In this document: piece after piece, positions 4,571 to 15,073 of the stretch | Numbering within the stretch: position 1 is the stretch's first letter | Layout of the letters: each line of letters opens with the position of its first letter | Assembly: GCA_030698375.1 (NCBI GenBank) | Contig: JAUYLL010000045.1 | Coordinates: 2,249-66,248, forward strand | Length of the DNA stretch: 64,000 nt | Direction of reading: 5' to 3' | Origin: Nocardioides sp. | Lineage (GTDB): Bacteria; Actinomycetota; Actinomycetes; Propionibacteriales; Nocardioidaceae | Program-made: the position numbers and the translations under genes | Notes under the pieces: generated by a model | Told to the model about the DNA's origin: nothing | Database searches by the model: none | What the model saw: the letters and a program-made list of their open reading frames with translations, nothing else

Positions 4571-6286
4571 CTAGTGCCGCCCGTGCAGCTTCATCCTCGG
4601 TGGCCGCCCGTCGGGGTCGACCACCGCGCGGTACGCCGGGGCGAGCAGCGTGCGCTGCCAGCGGGGCGGGTCCTCGACGTGGTGGCGCCGCAGCCGGCCC
4701 GGCGGACGGTCGCCCTGCTCCCCGTCGGCGTACCACTGCTCGAGGGTGGTCGAGGAGCGGCGGACGGTCTCGAAGGCCTCGACCGGGTCGACCAGGCCCT
4801 CGTCGTCGTCCCCGTCGCGGGCGCGGTCGAGGTGCTCACGGAAGAGCTCGAGCCGCAGGTCGCGGGCGAACGTGCGCGCGCCGTCGCCGAGGCCGGCCGG
4901 GTCGTGGGGCACCCGCTGGTCCCGTCGGGAGTCGACGACGGCCGCGGTGAGCTCGGAGTCGTGGGTCCAGGACCGGCGGTTGAAGTTGTCGCTGCCGACG
5001 GTGGCCCAGACATCGTCGACCACGCAGACCTTGGCGTGCACGTAGACCGGCTCGCCGAGGCGGTTCACCACGTCGACCACCTGCACACGGTCACCGCCGG
5101 CCTCCTGGACCTGCTCGATCGCCTGGGCGTGACCGAGAAGGGCGGCCGCCCGCCCGATACGGCCGTCCTGGTCCGGGAACCGGGGGACGACCGCCAGCAG
5201 GTGCAGACCCGGCTCCCGCTCGAGGGCCTCGACGAAGACCTGCGCCACCGACGTCGACCAGAGGTACTGGTCCTCGAGGTAGACCAGCCGGCGGGCCCGC
5301 CGCAGCGCCTTGGCGTAGCCGCGGGCGACGCTGCGCTCCCCGTCGGGTGCGAACGGGTAGCCCGGCCAGCGATTGGGGTAGGTGCGCAGCAGCTGCACCG
5401 CGCAGGTGCCGGAGGCCGGGGGGTCCGGCAGCGGGTCGGGGAGCGCGCTGGGGCTCCGGTCGGTGCCGCGGAGCAGGTCCGGGATCACGTGCCAGGGCAG
5501 GCGGGTCAGCTCGGCCGGGTCCTCCCAGCGCTCGCGGAAGAGGTCCTCCACGTCCCGGACGGCAGGACCCCGCACCTCCACTTGCACGTCGTGCCAGGCC
5601 GGGGTGTCGCCGTACCACTCGGCGAAGGGCTGGGTCTGGTGGTCGCCGCGGTGCTCGGCGTCGTCGCGGCGGCTGTGGGCGAGGTCGATGCCGCCGACGA
5701 AGGCCACGTCGCGCTCGGGGGCGTCGGGGTGCCGGACGGCGATGAACTTCTGGTGGTGGCTGCCGAGCGGCCGCACGCGCTGGTCCAGCAGCGCCTCACC
5801 GCCGGCGTCGTTGACCTCCTCGGTGAGGTCGCGGTTCTGGTCGGCCGAGAAGCGGAACCGGTCCAGGTGCGAGCGCCACAGCAGCCCCTTGACAGTCACG
5901 CCACGCGCCGCGGCTGCCGCCAGCGCGTCGGAGATCGTCGGCCCCTCGTCGGTGAGCAGTTGGTCGGGGTCGCCCCGCCAGTCGCTGAAGAAGATCAGGT
6001 CGCCGGACCGGGTCGCGGCGATCGCCTCGGCGAGGGCGGGGAAGTAGGCGGCCCCGTGCACGAGCGGGCGCGCCAGGTTGCCCTCGGTCCAGGGGCGGAT
6101 CCGGGTGGCGGTGTTCCCGCGCTCCTCGCCGGTAAGGAACCAGGCCGCCAGCGGGTCGGGCGAGGCCGAGGACGCCGGGAGCGCGGTCAGCGTGGTCCCG
6201 TCCTTCCGCAGCGGCATGCCCACCCCGGGGCGCGAGTGGTCGCGGAGCGAGAAGGGCCAGAGCCTGCGGGGACGGGGCACGGGCAC
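4571..6286 (-). CDS. Phospholipase D family protein (start may be 6217)
   Basis: HQKFIAVR...GGIDL and HAKVCVVDD...GSDN HKD-type motifs. Confidence 0.85.
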   Translation of the reverse strand: MPVPRPRRLWPFSLRDHSRPGVGMPLRKDGTTLTALPASSASPDPLAAWFLTGEERGNTATRIRPWTEGNLARPLVHGAAYFPALAEAIAATRSGDLIFFSDWRGDPDQLLTDEGPTISDALAAAAARGVTVKGLLWRSHLDRFRFSADQNRDLTEEVNDAGGEALLDQRVRPLGSHHQKFIAVRHPDAPERDVAFVGGIDLAHSRRDDAEHRGDHQTQPFAEWYGDTPAWHDVQVEVRGPAVRDVEDLFRERWEDPAELTRLPWHVIPDLLRGTDRSPSALPDPLPDPPASGTCAVQLLRTYPNRWPGYPFAPDGERSVARGYAKALRRARRLVYLEDQYLWSTSVAQVFVEALEREPGLHLLAVVPRFPDQDGRIGRAAALLGHAQAIEQVQEAGGDRVQVVDVVNRLGEPVYVHAKVCVVDDVWATVGSDNFNRRSWTHDSELTAAVVDSRRDQRVPHDPAGLGDGARTFARDLRLELFREHLDRARDGDDDEGLVDPVEAFETVRRSSTTLEQWYADGEQGDRPPGRLRRHHVEDPPRWQRTLLAPAYRAVVDPDGRPPRMKLHGRH

Positions 6287-10424: not shown

Positions 10425-11138
10425 TCAGGAGGAGGCCGCGACGGGGCGCGCGGCGACGTACACCGAGCACGAGGAGGTGCCGTCGGTGACCGGGTTGGCG
10501 AAGGCCACCGTGTGCGTCTCGACGGTCTCGAACACCGCGCCCAGGTGGGCGGTGAACGCCTCGTCCGGCGGGTCGTCGGACCACAGGCTCAGCACGCCGT
10601 GGGGGCGCAGCATCCGCCCCGCCGCGCGCAGGCCGTCCTGGGTGTAGAAGTCGCCGTGGTCCTCGCGCAGGAGGTGGGCCGGCGAGTGGTCGATGTCGAC
10701 GAGCAGCGCGTCAAGCGGCGTCGACCACGCGCGGTCGCGTACCAGCGCGAAGAAGTCGTGCTGGCGCAGGTCGCAGCGGGGGTCAGCGGCGAGCCCGGAG
10801 GTCGCGGGCAGCAGGTCCCGCTGGTGCCAGTCGATGACCGGGGCCAGGGCCTCGACCACGGTGACTCGGGCGACACGGGGGTCGAGGAGGGCTTCGGACG
10901 CCGTGTAGCCGAGCCCAAGACCGCCGACCATGACCTCGAGCCGCTCGCCCTCGAGGGCGGCCAGCCCGAGCGAGGCCAGCGCCTGCTCGGTCGCGGTGAA
11001 CTGGCTCGACATCAAGTAGTCGTCATCGAGCTTGACCTCGTAGACGGTGCGCCGGGTGATCCGGTCACGCCGGCGCCGCAGGCTGATCTCGCCCCACGGG
11101 GTCTCGGCCCAGTCGAGCTCCTCGAACAGGGCGGCCAT
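10425..11138 (-). CDS. Spermidine-synthase-like SAM-binding protein
   Basis: LMSS, VGGLGLGYT SAM-binding loop, VVE and DIDHSP; start ATG 11138. Confidence 0.8.
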   Translation of the reverse strand: MAALFEELDWAETPWGEISLRRRRDRITRRTVYEVKLDDDYLMSSQFTATEQALASLGLAALEGERLEVMVGGLGLGYTASEALLDPRVARVTVVEALAPVIDWHQRDLLPATSGLAADPRCDLRQHDFFALVRDRAWSTPLDALLVDIDHSPAHLLREDHGDFYTQDGLRAAGRMLRPHGVLSLWSDDPPDEAFTAHLGAVFETVETHTVAFANPVTDGTSSCSVYVAARPVAASS

Positions 11139-11182
11139 CAGGGCGCCGTCGGATCGGGTCGAGTCGACTCCGCACGATGCAT
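11138..11182 (-). CDS. Putative leaderless 14-aa uORF (MHRAESTRPDPTAP) coupled to the next gene
   Basis: ATG 6 nt after TAGGTT -10; its TGA overlaps the downstream ATG (TGATG). Confidence 0.45.
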   Translation of the reverse strand: MHRAESTRPDPTAP

Positions 11183-11188
11183 CCCGAC

Positions 11189-11209
11189 AACCTACCGCTG
11201 CGTGAGGTT
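11189..11209 (-). promoter_or_regulatory. Putative MerR operator/-10, copy 1 (AACCTCACGCAGCGGTAGGTT)
   Basis: Dyad; matches copies 2 and 3; contains TAGGTT -10. Confidence 0.7.
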
Positions 11210-11271
11210 GATGGGGGAGGGGTGCCGGAGAGGACCTAGAGTGGGCCCGGCACCGACGCGAGAGGAGCCCG

Positions 11272-11682
11272 ATGTCTGGCCAGCACGTCCAGATCGGTGA
11301 GGTGGCGGCGAGCACGGGCCTGAGCCTGCGGACCATCCGGTACTACGAGGAGGTTGGGCTGGTCACGCCCTCGGCCCGCTCGACGGGCGGTTTCCGGCTC
11401 TACGCGGCCGCCGACGTCGACCGCCTCGAGCTGGTCAAGCGGATGAAGCCCCTGGACTTCTCCCTCGACGACATGCGCGACCTGCTCCGCGTCGTGGACG
11501 CACTGGATGCCGGTCCCACGTCGGAGGAGCGCCGTGAGCTCCTCGAGCGGCTGCACGGCCTGCACGGCGAGGCCGCCGAGCGCGTCGAGTCCCTGCGGCG
11601 CAAGCTGACGGTGGCGGAGCAGTTCGCCGACAGCCTGGCCGTGCGGCTGGGCGATCAGCGCAGCCGCTCCACCGACGCCTGA
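11272..11682 (+). CDS. MerR family transcriptional regulator (no Cys)
   Basis: QIGEVA...LSLRTIRYYEEVGL...R..GGFRLY HTH; GAGGAG RBS. Confidence 0.92.
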   Translation: MSGQHVQIGEVAASTGLSLRTIRYYEEVGLVTPSARSTGGFRLYAAADVDRLELVKRMKPLDFSLDDMRDLLRVVDALDAGPTSEERRELLERLHGLHGEAAERVESLRRKLTVAEQFADSLAVRLGDQRSRSTDA

Positions 11683-11694
11683 CGAGTTCGGCGC

Positions 11695-11715
11695 CACCTC
11701 ACGCGCCGTTAGGGT
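11695..11715 (+). promoter_or_regulatory. Putative MerR operator/-10, copy 2 (CACCTCACGCGCCGTTAGGGT), leaderless prfC promoter
   Basis: Dyad; TAGGGT ends 5 nt before GTG 11721. Confidence 0.7.
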
Positions 11716-11720
11716 CAGGG

Positions 11721-13292
11721 GTGATGACGGACCAGGACCCCCGCCCCCGCCGTACCTTTGCGGTGATCAGCCACCCCGACGCCGGCAAGTCGACGCTCAC
11801 CGAGGCACTCGCCCTCCACGCGCACGCGCTCACCCAGGCCGGAGCCGTCCACGGCAAGGCAGGCCGCAAGGCGACCGTGTCGGACTGGATGGACATGGAG
11901 AAGGCCCGCGGGATCTCCATCACCTCGGCGGCGCTGCAGTTCGAGCACGCCGACCACGTCATCAACCTCGTCGACACTCCGGGCCACTCCGACTTCTCCG
12001 AGGACACCTACCGGGTGCTGACGGCCGTCGACTCCGCGCTGATGCTCATCGACGCCGCGAAGGGGCTGGAGCCCCAGACCCTGAAGCTCTTCCGGGTGTG
12101 CGCCCAGCGCGGGCTGCCGGTCATCACCGTCATCAACAAGTGGGACCGTCCGGGGCTGGACCCCTTCGCCCTCCTCGACGAGATCGAGAAGGAGATTGGC
12201 CTGCGCCCCACCCCGCTCACCTGGCCGGTCGGCATCGCCGGGGACTTCCACGGCGTGCTCGACCGCCGGGACGGCCACTTCGTGAAGTACACGAGAACCG
12301 CCGGGGGAGCCACCCGCGCGCCGGTCGAGCACGTCGACGCGGCACGCGCGGCGGAGATCGCCGGTGCCGACTGGGAGGAGGCCGTCGAGGCCGACGAGCT
12401 GCTGTCGGCCGACGGTGCCGACCACGACCAGGCCAGCTACCTCGGCGGCAAGACCACTCCGGTGCTCTTCGCCTCCGCGCTGCTCAACTTCGGTGTCGAC
12501 CAGATCCTCGAGCTGCTGGTCGACATCGCCCCGGCCCCGCACGCGACCCGCGCCCAGGACGGGACGGAGCGGGCGGTCGACGACGACTTCAGCGCGTTCG
12601 TGTTCAAGGTGCAGTCCGGGATGGACTCCGCCCACCGGGACCGGCTCGCCTACGCGCGGGTCTGCTCGGGAGTCTTCGAGCGCGGGATGGTCGTGACCCA
12701 TGCAGCGTCCGGCAAACCGTTCGCGACGAAGTACGCCCAGGCCGTCTTCGGCCGCGAGCGCGTGGCGGTGGAGCGGGCCTACCCCGGCGACGTCATCGGG
12801 CTTGTGAACGCCTCCGCGCTCCGGGTCGGGGACACGATCTACGACGGCGAGCCGGTCGCCTTCCCGCCGATCGAGTCGTTCTCCCCCGAGCACTTCGCCA
12901 CCGCCTCCGTCGCCGACACCGGGCGGTGGAAGCAGTTCCGTCGCGGCATCGAGCAGCTCGACGAGGAGGGCGTCGTCCAGGTGCTCCGCTCCGACCTGCG
13001 CGGGGACCAGTCGCCGGTGCTCGCCGCCGTCGGACCGATGCAGTTCGAGGTGGTCGCCGCGCGGCTGGAGGCGGAGTTCCGCGCTCCGGTGCGCCTCGAG
13101 CGGCTCGGCTTCGAGCTTGCCCGCCAAGTGCGCCCCGACCAGGCGGACCTGGTCGGCTCCCAGCGGGGGGTCGAGGTGCTCGCCCGCCGCGACGGCACCC
13201 TGCTCGCCCTCTTCCCCGACAAGTGGCGGCTGCGTCAGGTGCAGCGGGACCACCCCGACCTCGAACTGGGTGCGCTTCCGGCGGGCGGGTAG
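11721..13292 (+). CDS. prfC: Peptide chain release factor 3
   Basis: RRTFAVISHPDAGKSTLTE, SDWMDMEKARGISI, DTPGH, NKWD, HRDR and GPMQFEV motifs. Confidence 0.95.
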   Translation: MMTDQDPRPRRTFAVISHPDAGKSTLTEALALHAHALTQAGAVHGKAGRKATVSDWMDMEKARGISITSAALQFEHADHVINLVDTPGHSDFSEDTYRVLTAVDSALMLIDAAKGLEPQTLKLFRVCAQRGLPVITVINKWDRPGLDPFALLDEIEKEIGLRPTPLTWPVGIAGDFHGVLDRRDGHFVKYTRTAGGATRAPVEHVDAARAAEIAGADWEEAVEADELLSADGADHDQASYLGGKTTPVLFASALLNFGVDQILELLVDIAPAPHATRAQDGTERAVDDDFSAFVFKVQSGMDSAHRDRLAYARVCSGVFERGMVVTHAASGKPFATKYAQAVFGRERVAVERAYPGDVIGLVNASALRVGDTIYDGEPVAFPPIESFSPEHFATASVADTGRWKQFRRGIEQLDEEGVVQVLRSDLRGDQSPVLAAVGPMQFEVVAARLEAEFRAPVRLERLGFELARQVRPDQADLVGSQRGVEVLARRDGTLLALFPDKWRLRQVQRDHPDLELGALPAGG

Positions 13293-13343
13293 GCGACTGA
13301 GACAGAGATCACGGCTGGTCCCGCAGCGGACGATGCGCGGCTG

Positions 13344-13364
13344 AGTCTCACGTCACGGTAGAGT
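13344..13364 (+). promoter_or_regulatory. Putative MerR operator/-10, copy 3 (AGTCTCACGTCACGGTAGAGT)
   Basis: Dyad matching copies 1 and 2; contains TAGAGT -10; upstream of sulP. Confidence 0.7.
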
Positions 13365-13537
13365 CTGGTCCGGCACAGCGCGTCACGCACCGCTGCGTCG
13401 GGTTCCTCCTCGGGAGGACACCCCTTCTTCTTCTCTCGCGGTCCCCGGCCGCATCCTCCGATCCTCGTGGTCCCGGCTGACGTGCAACGACGCGCCGCAG
13501 CGGTCCGCACACCCGACCGACCGCCTGGAGTTCCCCT

Positions 13538-15073
13538 GTGTCTGATGCCCAGCCCGCCGCGTCCGTGGTGACCGACGTCCACCATCCGCCGGCCGAGGTC
13601 CACACCGTCATGGGCGCGCTCCGTCGTCCGGCGATCCTGCGCCGCGAGCTGATCGCAGGCCTGGTCGTGGCCCTGGCCCTCATCCCCGAGGCGATCGCGT
13701 TCTCGATCATCGCCGGCGTGGATCCGCGGGTCGGGCTCTTCGCCTCGTTCACGATGGCGGTCTCGATCGCGTTCCTCGGCGGTCGCCCCGCGATGATCTC
13801 GGCCGCGACCGGCGCGATCGCGCTCGTCATCGCTCCGGTGGTTCGCGACCACGGTCTTGACTACCTCATCGCCACGGTGCTGCTCGGCGGCATCATCCAG
13901 GTGGCGCTCGGGCTCTCGGGTTTCGCGAAGATGATGCGGTTCATCCCGCGCTCGGTGATGGTCGGCTTCGTCAACGCCCTCGCCATCTTGATCTTCATGG
14001 CGCAGATCACGCACATGGTCGACGTGCCGCTCATCGTCTACCCGATGATCGGCTTCGGGATCCTCGTGATGGTGCTGCTGCCGCGGATGACCGTGGCCGT
14101 TCCCGCGCCGCTGGTCGCCATCGTGATCCTCACGGTCCTCACCGTCGCGGTCGGCCTGACCGTCCCGAACGTGGGCGACGAGGGCGAGCTGCCCGACAGC
14201 CTCCCCTCACTCTTCGTGCCCGACGTGCCGTTCACCCTCGAGACGCTGCAGATCATCGCGCCGTACGCGATCGCGATGGCGTTGGTCGGGCTCCTGGAGT
14301 CGCTGCTGACCGCCAAGCTCGTCGACGACATCACCGACACCCACTCCGACAAGACCCGTGAGGCCTGGGGCCAGGGCGGCGCCAACATCATCACCAGCTT
14401 CTTCGGGGGCATGGGGGGCTGCGCGATGATCGGCCAGACGATGATCAACGTGAAGGAGGGCCGGGCGCGCACCCGAATCTCCACCTTCTCCGCCGGCGTC
14501 TTCCTGCTGATCCTCGTGGTCGGCTTCGGCGACATCGTCGCCATCATCCCGATGGCCGCGCTGGTCGCGGTGATGATCATGGTGGCCGTCGGCACCTTCG
14601 ACTGGCACAGCGTCGCCCCGGCCACGCTGCGCCGGATGCCCAAGTCGGAGACGACGGTGATGGTCTCGACCGTGGTCGTCACCGTCGGCACCCACAACCT
14701 CGCCATCGGCGTCGTCGTCGGTGTCCTGGTGGCCATGACGCTCTTCGCGCGTCGGGTCGCACACATGACCGAGACGCACCGCGAGCTGGTCGAGGCCAAG
14801 GACGGCTCCGTGGCGGCGGTCTACCGGGTCACCGGGGAGCTGTTCTTCGCCTCCAGCAACGACCTCTACACCCAGTTCGAGTACGCCGAGGACCCCGAGT
14901 ACGTCGTCATCGACCTCTCGGCCTCCCATGTCTGGGACGCCTCGACCGTGGCGGCGCTGGACAGCATCTGCACCAAGTACGAGCGCAAGGGCAAGACGGT
15001 CGAGATCACCGGGCTCAACGACTCCAGCGCCTACCGCCACGGCACGCTGACCGGGAACCTGTCGATGCACTGA
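13538..15073 (+). CDS. SulP/SLC26 family anion transporter with C-terminal STAS domain
   Basis: LIPEAIAFS, GGRPAMIS, GLLESLLT, GGCAMIGQ and GELFFAS motifs. Confidence 0.92.
   Translation: MSDAQPAASVVTDVHHPPAEVHTVMGALRRPAILRRELIAGLVVALALIPEAIAFSIIAGVDPRVGLFASFTMAVSIAFLGGRPAMISAATGAIALVIAPVVRDHGLDYLIATVLLGGIIQVALGLSGFAKMMRFIPRSVMVGFVNALAILIFMAQITHMVDVPLIVYPMIGFGILVMVLLPRMTVAVPAPLVAIVILTVLTVAVGLTVPNVGDEGELPDSLPSLFVPDVPFTLETLQIIAPYAIAMALVGLLESLLTAKLVDDITDTHSDKTREAWGQGGANIITSFFGGMGGCAMIGQTMINVKEGRARTRISTFSAGVFLLILVVGFGDIVAIIPMAALVAVMIMVAVGTFDWHSVAPATLRRMPKSETTVMVSTVVVTVGTHNLAIGVVVGVLVAMTLFARRVAHMTETHRELVEAKDGSVAAVYRVTGELFFASSNDLYTQFEYAEDPEYVVIDLSASHVWDASTVAALDSICTKYERKGKTVEITGLNDSSAYRHGTLTGNLSMH

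Follow-up and report, generated by a model that had tools for sequence, protein, structure and literature searches.

MerR-type activators in the TipA/Mta/SkgA class act on an odd 21-bp dyad (ACCCTCACGT-N-ACGT...), and in the promoters of tipA, mta and skgA given in PMC7762955 a TTG stands directly before a dyad of this class. We analysed a 64,000-nucleotide window of the Nocardioides sp. assembly GCA_030698375.1 (contig JAUYLL010000045.1, positions 2,249 to 66,248; "the window" is this whole stretch). Nearly the same dyad was found three times in a small locus of the window, where a merR gene lies among prfC, coding for release factor RF3, sulP, coding for a SulP/SLC26 transporter, and a gene for a putative S-adenosylmethionine (SAM)-dependent enzyme. 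It is very probable that such genes form a regulon in Actinomycetota and that the MerR protein represses it.

The locus shares an autoregulated local unit with the TipA/Mta/SkgA class, together with an operator of the ACCCTNACGT-N-ACGT type, as judged by eye from our matrix consensus and the three probes in PMC7762955. The DNA-binding domains are also related (TipAN, E 3e-13; MtaN, E 2e-12). Unlike that class, the studied MerR has no C-terminal TipAS drug-binding domain; it is 136 aa long, ends in a single helix and matches no such Pfam domain. Its dyads are not preceded by a TTG -35 element and do not lie in a 19-bp spacer, but cover the -10 box. The operators often consist of two dyads 5 bp apart, and the targets include translation and RNA factors.

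HiNmlR, GlnR/TnrA, HspR and B. subtilis YfmP resemble the studied MerR in being short and free of a ligand domain, and HiNmlR also matched its fold. GlnR, HspR and YfmP are repressors. Autoregulation of YfmP is described in the available text of PMC3210768. The studied MerR scored far below the NCBIfam cut-offs of this group (NmlR, 55 against 175; HspR, 40 against 105; TnrA, 43 against 140). It lacks the conserved Cys pair and differs in operator and targets; YfmP was compared on points other than sequence. Fold and size are shared with the metal and redox sensors CueR, MerR, ZntR, CadR/PbrR and SoxR as well, with all NCBIfam scores below cut-off. The conserved Cys ligands of those sensors are missing from the studied clade, where only 2 of 52 aligned relatives have at least two cysteines.

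The merR and sulP pair itself is already in print as the 'SLP module' of the Arthrobacter plasmids pA8H1 and pA40H2 (PMC6305408), and both plasmids matched both of our proteins. In the available text of that paper, sulfate uptake is assumed without a test, and no operator and no link to RF3, RNase J or HelD is given. We found that pA8H1 carries the operator. The preliminary description of this DNA had called the regulon a candidate undescribed one. The pair has been named, but no published description of the operator, of the repression or of the link to RF3 and RNase J was found in a search that left most subscription journals and RegPrecise outside. The component families are known, and the use of the operator and the gene set appear undescribed. 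RF3 has roles in release-factor turnover, termination and quality control and is patchily distributed, according to the available text of PMC4342817, and some mycobacteria have gained it (PMC6418233, in the part available). RF3 is dispensable and was present in 60 of 251 Actinomycetota genomes in our survey, so that the locus bears on the question of why some lineages keep or regain it. In the predicted regulon RF3 stands under a dedicated predicted repressor, its companions are a second RNase J, a HelD-like ATPase and a transporter close to SLC26Dg, and it is also carried on plasmids. A TipA-type site has apparently been put to use in repression, and it often takes the form of two dyads that overlap.

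Operators at the locus and in related genomes

The preliminary description had placed three 21-bp dyads between the genes, and all three were present at the positions and on the strands listed in Table 1. Their common pattern, CTCACG-N3-CG[G/T]TAG-NN-T, had these three matches and no others in the whole assembly (3,462,855 bases, 87% complete; genome scans covered both strands). The three sites served as the seed of a symmetric matrix, which was then refined by iteration on the loci of 80 relatives only, with the studied locus excluded. These loci were the best 80 of 266 MerR relatives from a scan of species genomes, and neighbours were taken within up to 7 kb. The resulting consensus was ACYCT-HMCST-N-ASGKD-AGRGT (131 sites, 23.7 bits). 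The scan of the studied and related genomes that had been proposed earlier was made with this relatives-only matrix. It recovered all three sites, and the next-best position in the window reached 6.2 bits. Eight positions exceeded 12 bits in the genome, and the Poisson chance of three such sites in 4.65 kb was about 5e-8. In the related loci (1.04 Mb), 194 positions exceeded 15 bits, against one in each of five block shuffles.

The sites stood upstream of the orthologs although gene order was highly variable across the related loci. Counted at a threshold of 12 bits, with training and held-out loci pooled, sulP had an upstream site in 50 of 54 cases. A site of its own was found for 12 of 57 prfC genes and 45 lay directly behind a module gene; one or the other applied to 55 of the 57. 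The corresponding counts were 9 of 19 for the SAM-protein gene (13 with an own site or behind a module gene) and 9 of 25 for rnj, the RNase J gene (21 on the wider count). The DUF2795 gene had a site in 11 of 14 cases, and random stretches had one in 93 of 2140. Held-out genomes gave a site in 13/13 MerR loci with a module neighbour and in 0/5 without neighbours, and 14 of the 15 plasmid loci with MerR that were opened carried one.

The motif fell to background level where the MerR was missing. Among control prfC loci without an adjacent MerR, one of 26 had a site, and control sulP and prfC loci from genomes without a MerR match had none (0/8). In five MerR-less genomes the pattern matched 12 times and its reversed form 13 times. 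Two sets of five MerR-bearing genomes gave 51 against 9 and 33 against 10; an earlier, stricter pattern was dropped, having found one site in five genomes. The matches of the first MerR-bearing set mostly clustered at the module, which speaks against a large dispersed regulon. No other MerR with the same recognition helix was found in the studied assembly, which has five distant paralogs (38 bits at most). These results supported the earlier suggestion of a non-metal MerR regulon that links prfC, sulP and the SAM-protein gene, and we infer that the MerR protein binds the operators.

A distal member is plausible in the studied genome. The unlinked ADP-ribosylglycohydrolase gene at C111:58392 (locus L124) has a 19.8-bit operator just upstream, and three weaker distal sites were seen besides. 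In L026, L046 and L119, homologs of this gene sit within the module and have operators; in L040 and L024 they have no site.

Two further positions of the same assembly were recorded. At C131:67872 an 18.2-bit site has a TAGGGT box 6 nt before an ATG (L123:2006-2866, minus strand). This open reading frame (ORF) has no Pfam match and no homolog in the module loci, and it resembles a short remnant of a universal stress protein (USP) before a lipoprotein-like part. At C143:5942 a different perfect palindrome lies upstream of an aconitase-like gene, and it is probably the site of another regulator.

Position of the operators relative to promoters

As had been reported, each right arm of the three dyads closed with a TANNNT box directed at its gene, and a consensus sigma-70 pair of -35 and -10 elements was not found. 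Binding within the promoter spacer had been given as the known MerR mode. Here the dyad lies over the -10 box and not in an elongated spacer, which makes repression likelier than MerR-type activation. Geometry was evaluated at 94 sites with a clear target, using predicted -10 boxes. None of the 94 had TTG directly before the dyad, and none had TANNNT at dyad position 23/24, which corresponds to the 19-20 bp spacing of activators. TANNNT was found at position 10, 16 or 21 in 84 of them, twice as often toward the gene as away from it. In several loci, start codons lay 6-8 nt past such boxes (prfC, rnj, sulP, usp and merR). A DNA-twisting activator starts its dyad inside a TTGACN -35 with 19-20 bp spacing, and no site had this form. 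An operator that overlaps the core promoter is the mark of a MerR-family repressor, and the predicted -10 lay inside the dyad at these 84 sites. The operator-over-promoter geometry therefore predicts a repressor.

When the sites were anchored on the -10 box, positions 16 and 21 proved to be one promoter geometry viewed through two overlapping dyads. A variable -10 register was consequently dropped as proof of repression. The rnj type (position 10) was the sole separate register, seen in four Saccharothrix loci and one other. Anchoring gave ACTCT-ACCCT-NACGTN-AGGGT-AGAGT as the consensus, a palindrome of 26 bp that is the same as a pair of 21-bp dyads shifted by 5 bp. Of the 72 sites with the downstream dyad, 49 also had the upstream one (null mean 10.3, maximum 21 in 2000 draws); the three studied operators have the downstream dyad only. 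The two dyads, half a turn apart, possibly serve two dimers on opposite faces of the DNA. We favour the 21-mer as the binding unit over a single even-centred site, given 23 + 6 single-register sites and the likeness to TipA.

The MerR protein

The structural model of the MerR (confidence score pLDDT 96.5) suggested a winged helix-turn-helix followed by one long coiled-coil helix, which spans residues 84-135 and runs to the end, and no effector domain. Foldseek matched the fold to MtaN, CadR and HiNmlR, with MtaN nearest. Membership in the superfamily was clear (PF13411, 62 bits against a cut-off of 21.6), and the protein was above no named NCBIfam equivalog cut-off. Its relatives measure 121-150 aa from the vicinity of the aligned start to the stop, and the motifs MKPL.F and AE.FA are conserved. 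The absence of cysteine noted earlier was correct for the studied protein but not for its clade, in which 34 of the 52 aligned relatives have at least one (0 in 18, 1 in 32, at least 2 in 2). A metal or thiol switch is unlikely, judging from the alignment, because MKPL.F and AE.FA are conserved and the cysteines are not.

Two MerR paralogs of the same clade were seen within one module in L087, L090, L091 and L073, and L090 and L091 also have a degenerate MerR-like gene.

Genes and proteins of the module

Co-occurrence of the MerR with prfC and sulP was borne out, with prfC in 46 and sulP in 39 of the 80 loci, but the SAM-protein gene was a minority member (15). RNase J was a neighbour in 20, a major facilitator superfamily (MFS) gene in 12 and a DUF2795 gene in 11. 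Neighbours seen less often coded for a hemerythrin-domain protein (5 loci), a protein of 76-86 aa (4 loci), a HelD-like ATPase (3 loci) or an ADP-ribosylglycohydrolase (2 loci). At least one of prfC and sulP was present in 63 loci, and both were in 22. Judging from neighbourhoods and operators, the predicted regulon is wider than prfC, sulP and the SAM-protein gene, and the RNase J, MFS, DUF2795, HelD-like and ADP-ribosylglycohydrolase genes also belong to it. Operators were scattered before further genes (nhaA, usp, otsA, an acyltransferase and a PP2C gene); one is divergent from nhaA in L009, one precedes otsA in L038 and one precedes usp in L091. On two plasmids nhaA adjoins the module.

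The small 76-86 aa protein (L087:7611-7847; L026:5791-6045; L038:6613-6840) is encoded divergently from merR, and an operator was present in four of five cases; it had no Pfam family and only sub-threshold Atlas matches. In Cellulomonas and Cellulosimicrobium (L027, L042, L043, L047, L056, L062) merR stands directly before guaA with two operators upstream, and no prfC or sulP is nearby.

The SAM protein had been described as spermidine-synthase-like, a likeness that holds for the fold and not for the amine-binding Asp. Its scores were below cut-off (Spermine_synth, PF01564, 20.8 against 22.9 bits; NCBIfam PRK00811, 21.5 against 260 bits). Its AlphaFold model (pLDDT 93.6) matched spermidine synthases at Z of about 20 over 213 residues. 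Leu76 aligns with the Asp of the SpeE GGGDG motif, which binds the amine of decarboxylated SAM. Leu76, Thr79 and Asp148 were invariant in 17/17 sequences. The same signature is that of putrescine N-methyltransferase (PMT; PMC3725402, in the part available), which has the SpeE fold with a hydrophobic residue at D103 (here Leu76) and Thr at V106 (here Thr79), beside a catalytic Asp (here Asp148). In that source, such exchanges turn spermidine synthase into a methyltransferase. Unlike PMT, the studied protein belongs to a bacterial family with 15-22% identity to solved SpeE proteins. It is probably a methyltransferase and not a spermidine synthase, because the Asp needed for aminopropyl transfer is lacking.

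RF3 was identified by its equivalog score, G domain and RF3_C, and the G1-G4 motifs were intact in 61-63 of 63 homologs. The prfC gene gave a single strong tblastn match and is the only copy found in the assembly. The SulP protein has Sulfate_transp and STAS domains and scored below the DauA, BicA and TIGR00815 cut-offs. It is close to SLC26Dg (PDB 5DA0, E 5.5e-149), which is a fumarate transporter. The RNase J copies of the module kept HxHxDH in 25/25, and the RNase J gene of the studied genome is on another contig without the module. RNase J and HelD act in the clearing of stalled RNA polymerase.

Distribution and mobility

Among kin the MerR occurred in a patchy way, with matches at E 1e-20 in 3 of 40 relatives. 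A profile search that scored at most 16 candidates per genome found it in 18 of 251 genomes of the phylum, the studied one counted. Ten of the 17 other MerR-bearing genomes have RF3, six of them within about 2 kb. SulP was adjacent in 6/6 MerR-bearing genomes of the host's class. Of 72,556 plasmids, 45 encode the MerR at E 1e-11, and all 45 are actinobacterial; the range beyond Actinomycetota was judged from this search and from the named matches among the best 120. Forty-four of the 45 were among the 49 plasmids with a close SulP. Fuller modules with RF3, MFS and RNase J were found on plasmids of Cellulosimicrobium, Brevibacterium, Arthrobacter and Glutamicibacter.

A quick RF3 tree followed family for the most part, with module-linked and solo copies interleaved. 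It needed ten label changes and did not support module RF3 as one clade. Solo prfC genes often had DUF2795-type or MFS neighbours. Our reading is that the module is an old linkage with repeated loss and plasmid transfer, although the direction of these events is inferred.

In L156, L162, L184 and L186, which have no MerR match and no operator, prfC is still linked to MFS, and in L156 also to a close SulP. A Pseudonocardia plasmid (L119:9452-9697) has a C-terminal prfC remnant directly behind merR, suggesting loss of RF3 from that module.

Proposed mechanism and alternative explanations

We propose that prfC, sulP and the methyltransferase-like gene would be kept silent by MerR bound to the 21-bp palindromes that lie over their -10 boxes. 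Binding would block RNA polymerase by occlusion of the -10 box, not activate it by DNA twisting, and two dimers might load on opposite faces where dyads overlap with the 5-bp shift. A stress, most likely an imbalance of cytoplasmic ions or pH (weak acid, salt or anion), would release MerR. Derepression would then supply transporters that restore ion balance, as well as factors for clearing machinery that has stalled or is laden with errors, with RF3 acting on ribosomes, and RNase J and the HelD-like ATPase on RNA and RNA polymerase. Release could occur through an ion or pH effect on the dimer junction at MKPL.F/AE.FA, through a partner protein or through turnover, because the MerR has no ligand domain. 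This explanation as a whole is reasonably likely. The signal taken alone is less secure; ion or pH imbalance is plausible but short of an even chance, and the hints for it are the closeness of SulP to SLC26Dg and the operators near nhaA, otsA and usp. Identifying the inducer would reveal the condition under which RF3 and the SLC26 proteins of bacteria are important. A broader reading is tentative, and we would sooner bet against it than for it. According to it, a plasmid-mobile gene-expression rescue regulon extends across Actinomycetota, in which a sensor-less MerR puts a TipA-type operator to a new use, with two dimers that clamp opposite faces of the 26-bp palindrome over the -10 box. In a single stress response this regulon would switch on RF3, an extra RNase J, a HelD-like ATPase, enzymes that undo protein modifications and an SLC26 transporter. 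If true, it would make RF3 an inducible stress factor in Actinomycetota and help to explain its patchy distribution.

Several observations weigh against the repressor regulon. Membership is loose, since prfC, sulP and the SAM-protein gene stand together in 5 of 80 loci only, and within 7 kb of the MerR 17 of the 80 lack both prfC and sulP. NhaA, USP and OtsA are linked in one to three loci each. No site was present at two unlinked sulP copies of MerR-bearing genomes, and at the merR-sulP locus of C. glutamicum pBL90 none exceeded 10.3 bits. At the studied locus, operator 2 is weak and operator 1 misses the likely merR -10. TANNNT at position 16 is partly derived from the palindrome itself, with the box on the opposite strand at 28 of 94 sites against 56 toward the gene. 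The genomes are kin and not independent, and all counts overstate the support. Outside the host's class, a close SulP was not found in any of the five merR-prfC genomes tested (0/5), so that SulP is not an obligatory partner and probably not an obligatory co-sensor either.

The repressor regulon might instead respond to slowed translation under cold shock or ribosome-targeting drugs, with a short-lived, sensor-less repressor whose decay on a drop in synthesis would turn on RF3, RNase J and the HelD-like ATPase. The MerR has no effector domain, its regulon acts on ribosomes, RNA and RNA polymerase, several promoters look leaderless, and isolates from the Antarctic and the Arctic are among the hosts. 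In other classes than the host's, the link found is the merR-prfC adjacency, with no SulP seen. However, the commonest mobile unit is merR with sulP and no RF3; SulP is on 44 of the 45 MerR plasmids, and RF3 stands beside the MerR on only four of the 45 among the records opened. The neighbour clusters also showed no recurrent CspA or DEAD-box family, and we consider this signal unlikely. Defence against a small molecule, as with TipA and Mta, is less probable again. A toxic compound with an amine would be methylated by the SAM protein and exported by MFS or SulP, and RF3 and RNase J would keep the damage small. The operator class, the closeness of the fold to MtaN, the PMT-like signature, MFS in 12 of 80 loci and the presence of the module on plasmids near resistance islands agree with it. 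However, the MerR lacks a drug-binding domain, the methyltransferase is in only 15 of the 80 loci, and the flanking resistance genes vary between plasmids. A classical activator on a long spacer, or a different MerR protein at the same sites, would explain why the dyad resembles activator operators. This is very unlikely, since no site out of 94 has activator geometry, the motif tracks the studied MerR clade and the 87% complete assembly has no similar MerR.

Sulfate uptake is the reading given for the SLP module by Romaniuk et al. 2018 (PMC6305408), based in its available text on the sulfate permease annotation, and sulfur-oxidation genes adjoin the module on two Arthrobacter plasmids there. 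We regard it as highly improbable. No sulfur-assimilation genes recurred among the neighbours, and SLC26Dg, to which the SulP is close, is a fumarate transporter. In Rhodococcus qingshengii IGTS8, the adjacent sulfate permease and MerR genes (peg5415/peg5414), probably the studied module by size and gene order rather than by sequence, had low counts that did not change between dibenzothiophene and MgSO4 (PMC13689224 Table S2). The entries in that table were log2 -0.38, -0.37, -0.32 and +0.42, with adjusted p 0.48-0.72, when the columns are taken as DESeq2-type (PMC13689224). If peg5415 is the sulP of this module, its weak and unchanged expression is in keeping with a repressed gene and speaks against sulfate uptake. 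Fluoride resistance is equally improbable. It would account for the crcB genes next to the module on two plasmids, where usp is present as well and one of the two also has nhaA and glpX. However, crcB occurred in 2 of 120 loci, the crcB of pRWAY02 has no operator but a fluoride riboswitch of its own, and no Rfam match was seen in ten chromosomal loci. The repressor regulon released by stress remains our preferred explanation.

Features of the studied locus

The features of the locus are collected in Table 1.

Table 1. Genes, predicted promoter elements and operators of the merR locus, in window positions (scores from the relatives-only matrix).
Feature	Position	Strand	Description
SAM-protein gene	10425..11138	-	237 aa, spermidine-synthase fold, predicted SAM-dependent (N-)methyltransferase; Pfam PF01564 and NCBIfam PRK00811 below cut-off
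Candidate leaderless upstream ORF	11138..11182	-	14 codons, putative; starts 6 nt past -10; may be chance
Operator 1	11189..11209	-	right arm contains the predicted -10 of the SAM-protein gene (TAGGTT, 11194-11189); 20.3 bits
Predicted merR -10 box	11237..11242	+	TAGAGT, predicted from sequence; outside operator 1
merR	11272..11682	+	136 aa; Pfam MerR_1, E 5e-17
Operator 2	11695..11715	+	weakest; predicted prfC -10 (TAGGGT, 11710-11715) inside; 12.7 bits
prfC (RF3)	11721..13292	+	NCBIfam PRK00741, 582 bits against cut-off 473
Operator 3	13344..13364	+	predicted sulP -10 (TAGAGT, 13359-13364) inside; 27.9 bits, best of the genome
sulP leader	13365..13537	+	173 nt, C-rich (75 C against 19 A)
sulP	13538..15073	+	SulP/SLC26 transporter; Pfam PF00916 (Sulfate_transp) and PF01740 (STAS)

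Operator 1 lies 62 nt upstream of the divergent merR start. The stop codon of the 14-codon ORF overlaps the ATG of the SAM-protein gene by one base. The -10 box in operator 2 is 5-8 nt from the prfC start, so a leaderless promoter is predicted; at the same position the close relative L006 has a 26.8-bit site with an ATG 7 nt after the -10.

The sulP leader was examined for a riboswitch or conserved RNA by Rfam, folding and leader comparison, and none was found. Folding gave a z of -0.5, no Rfam match came near the gathering score, and no conserved RNA structure was seen. The sulP leaders resembled one another among close kin only. Riboswitches of other genes were seen on two plasmids. On Rhodococcus pRWAY02 (L120:6590-6680) a crcB-crcB-usp operon is preceded by a fluoride riboswitch, and on Arthrobacter pAD51 (L090:144-300) a LysM gene is preceded by one for c-di-AMP.

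Elsewhere in the window, a phospholipase D-like gene lies at 4571-6286 on the minus strand. Its homologs adjoin the module in L053 and L067, and in L067 the homolog is divergent from merR, with operators between the two.

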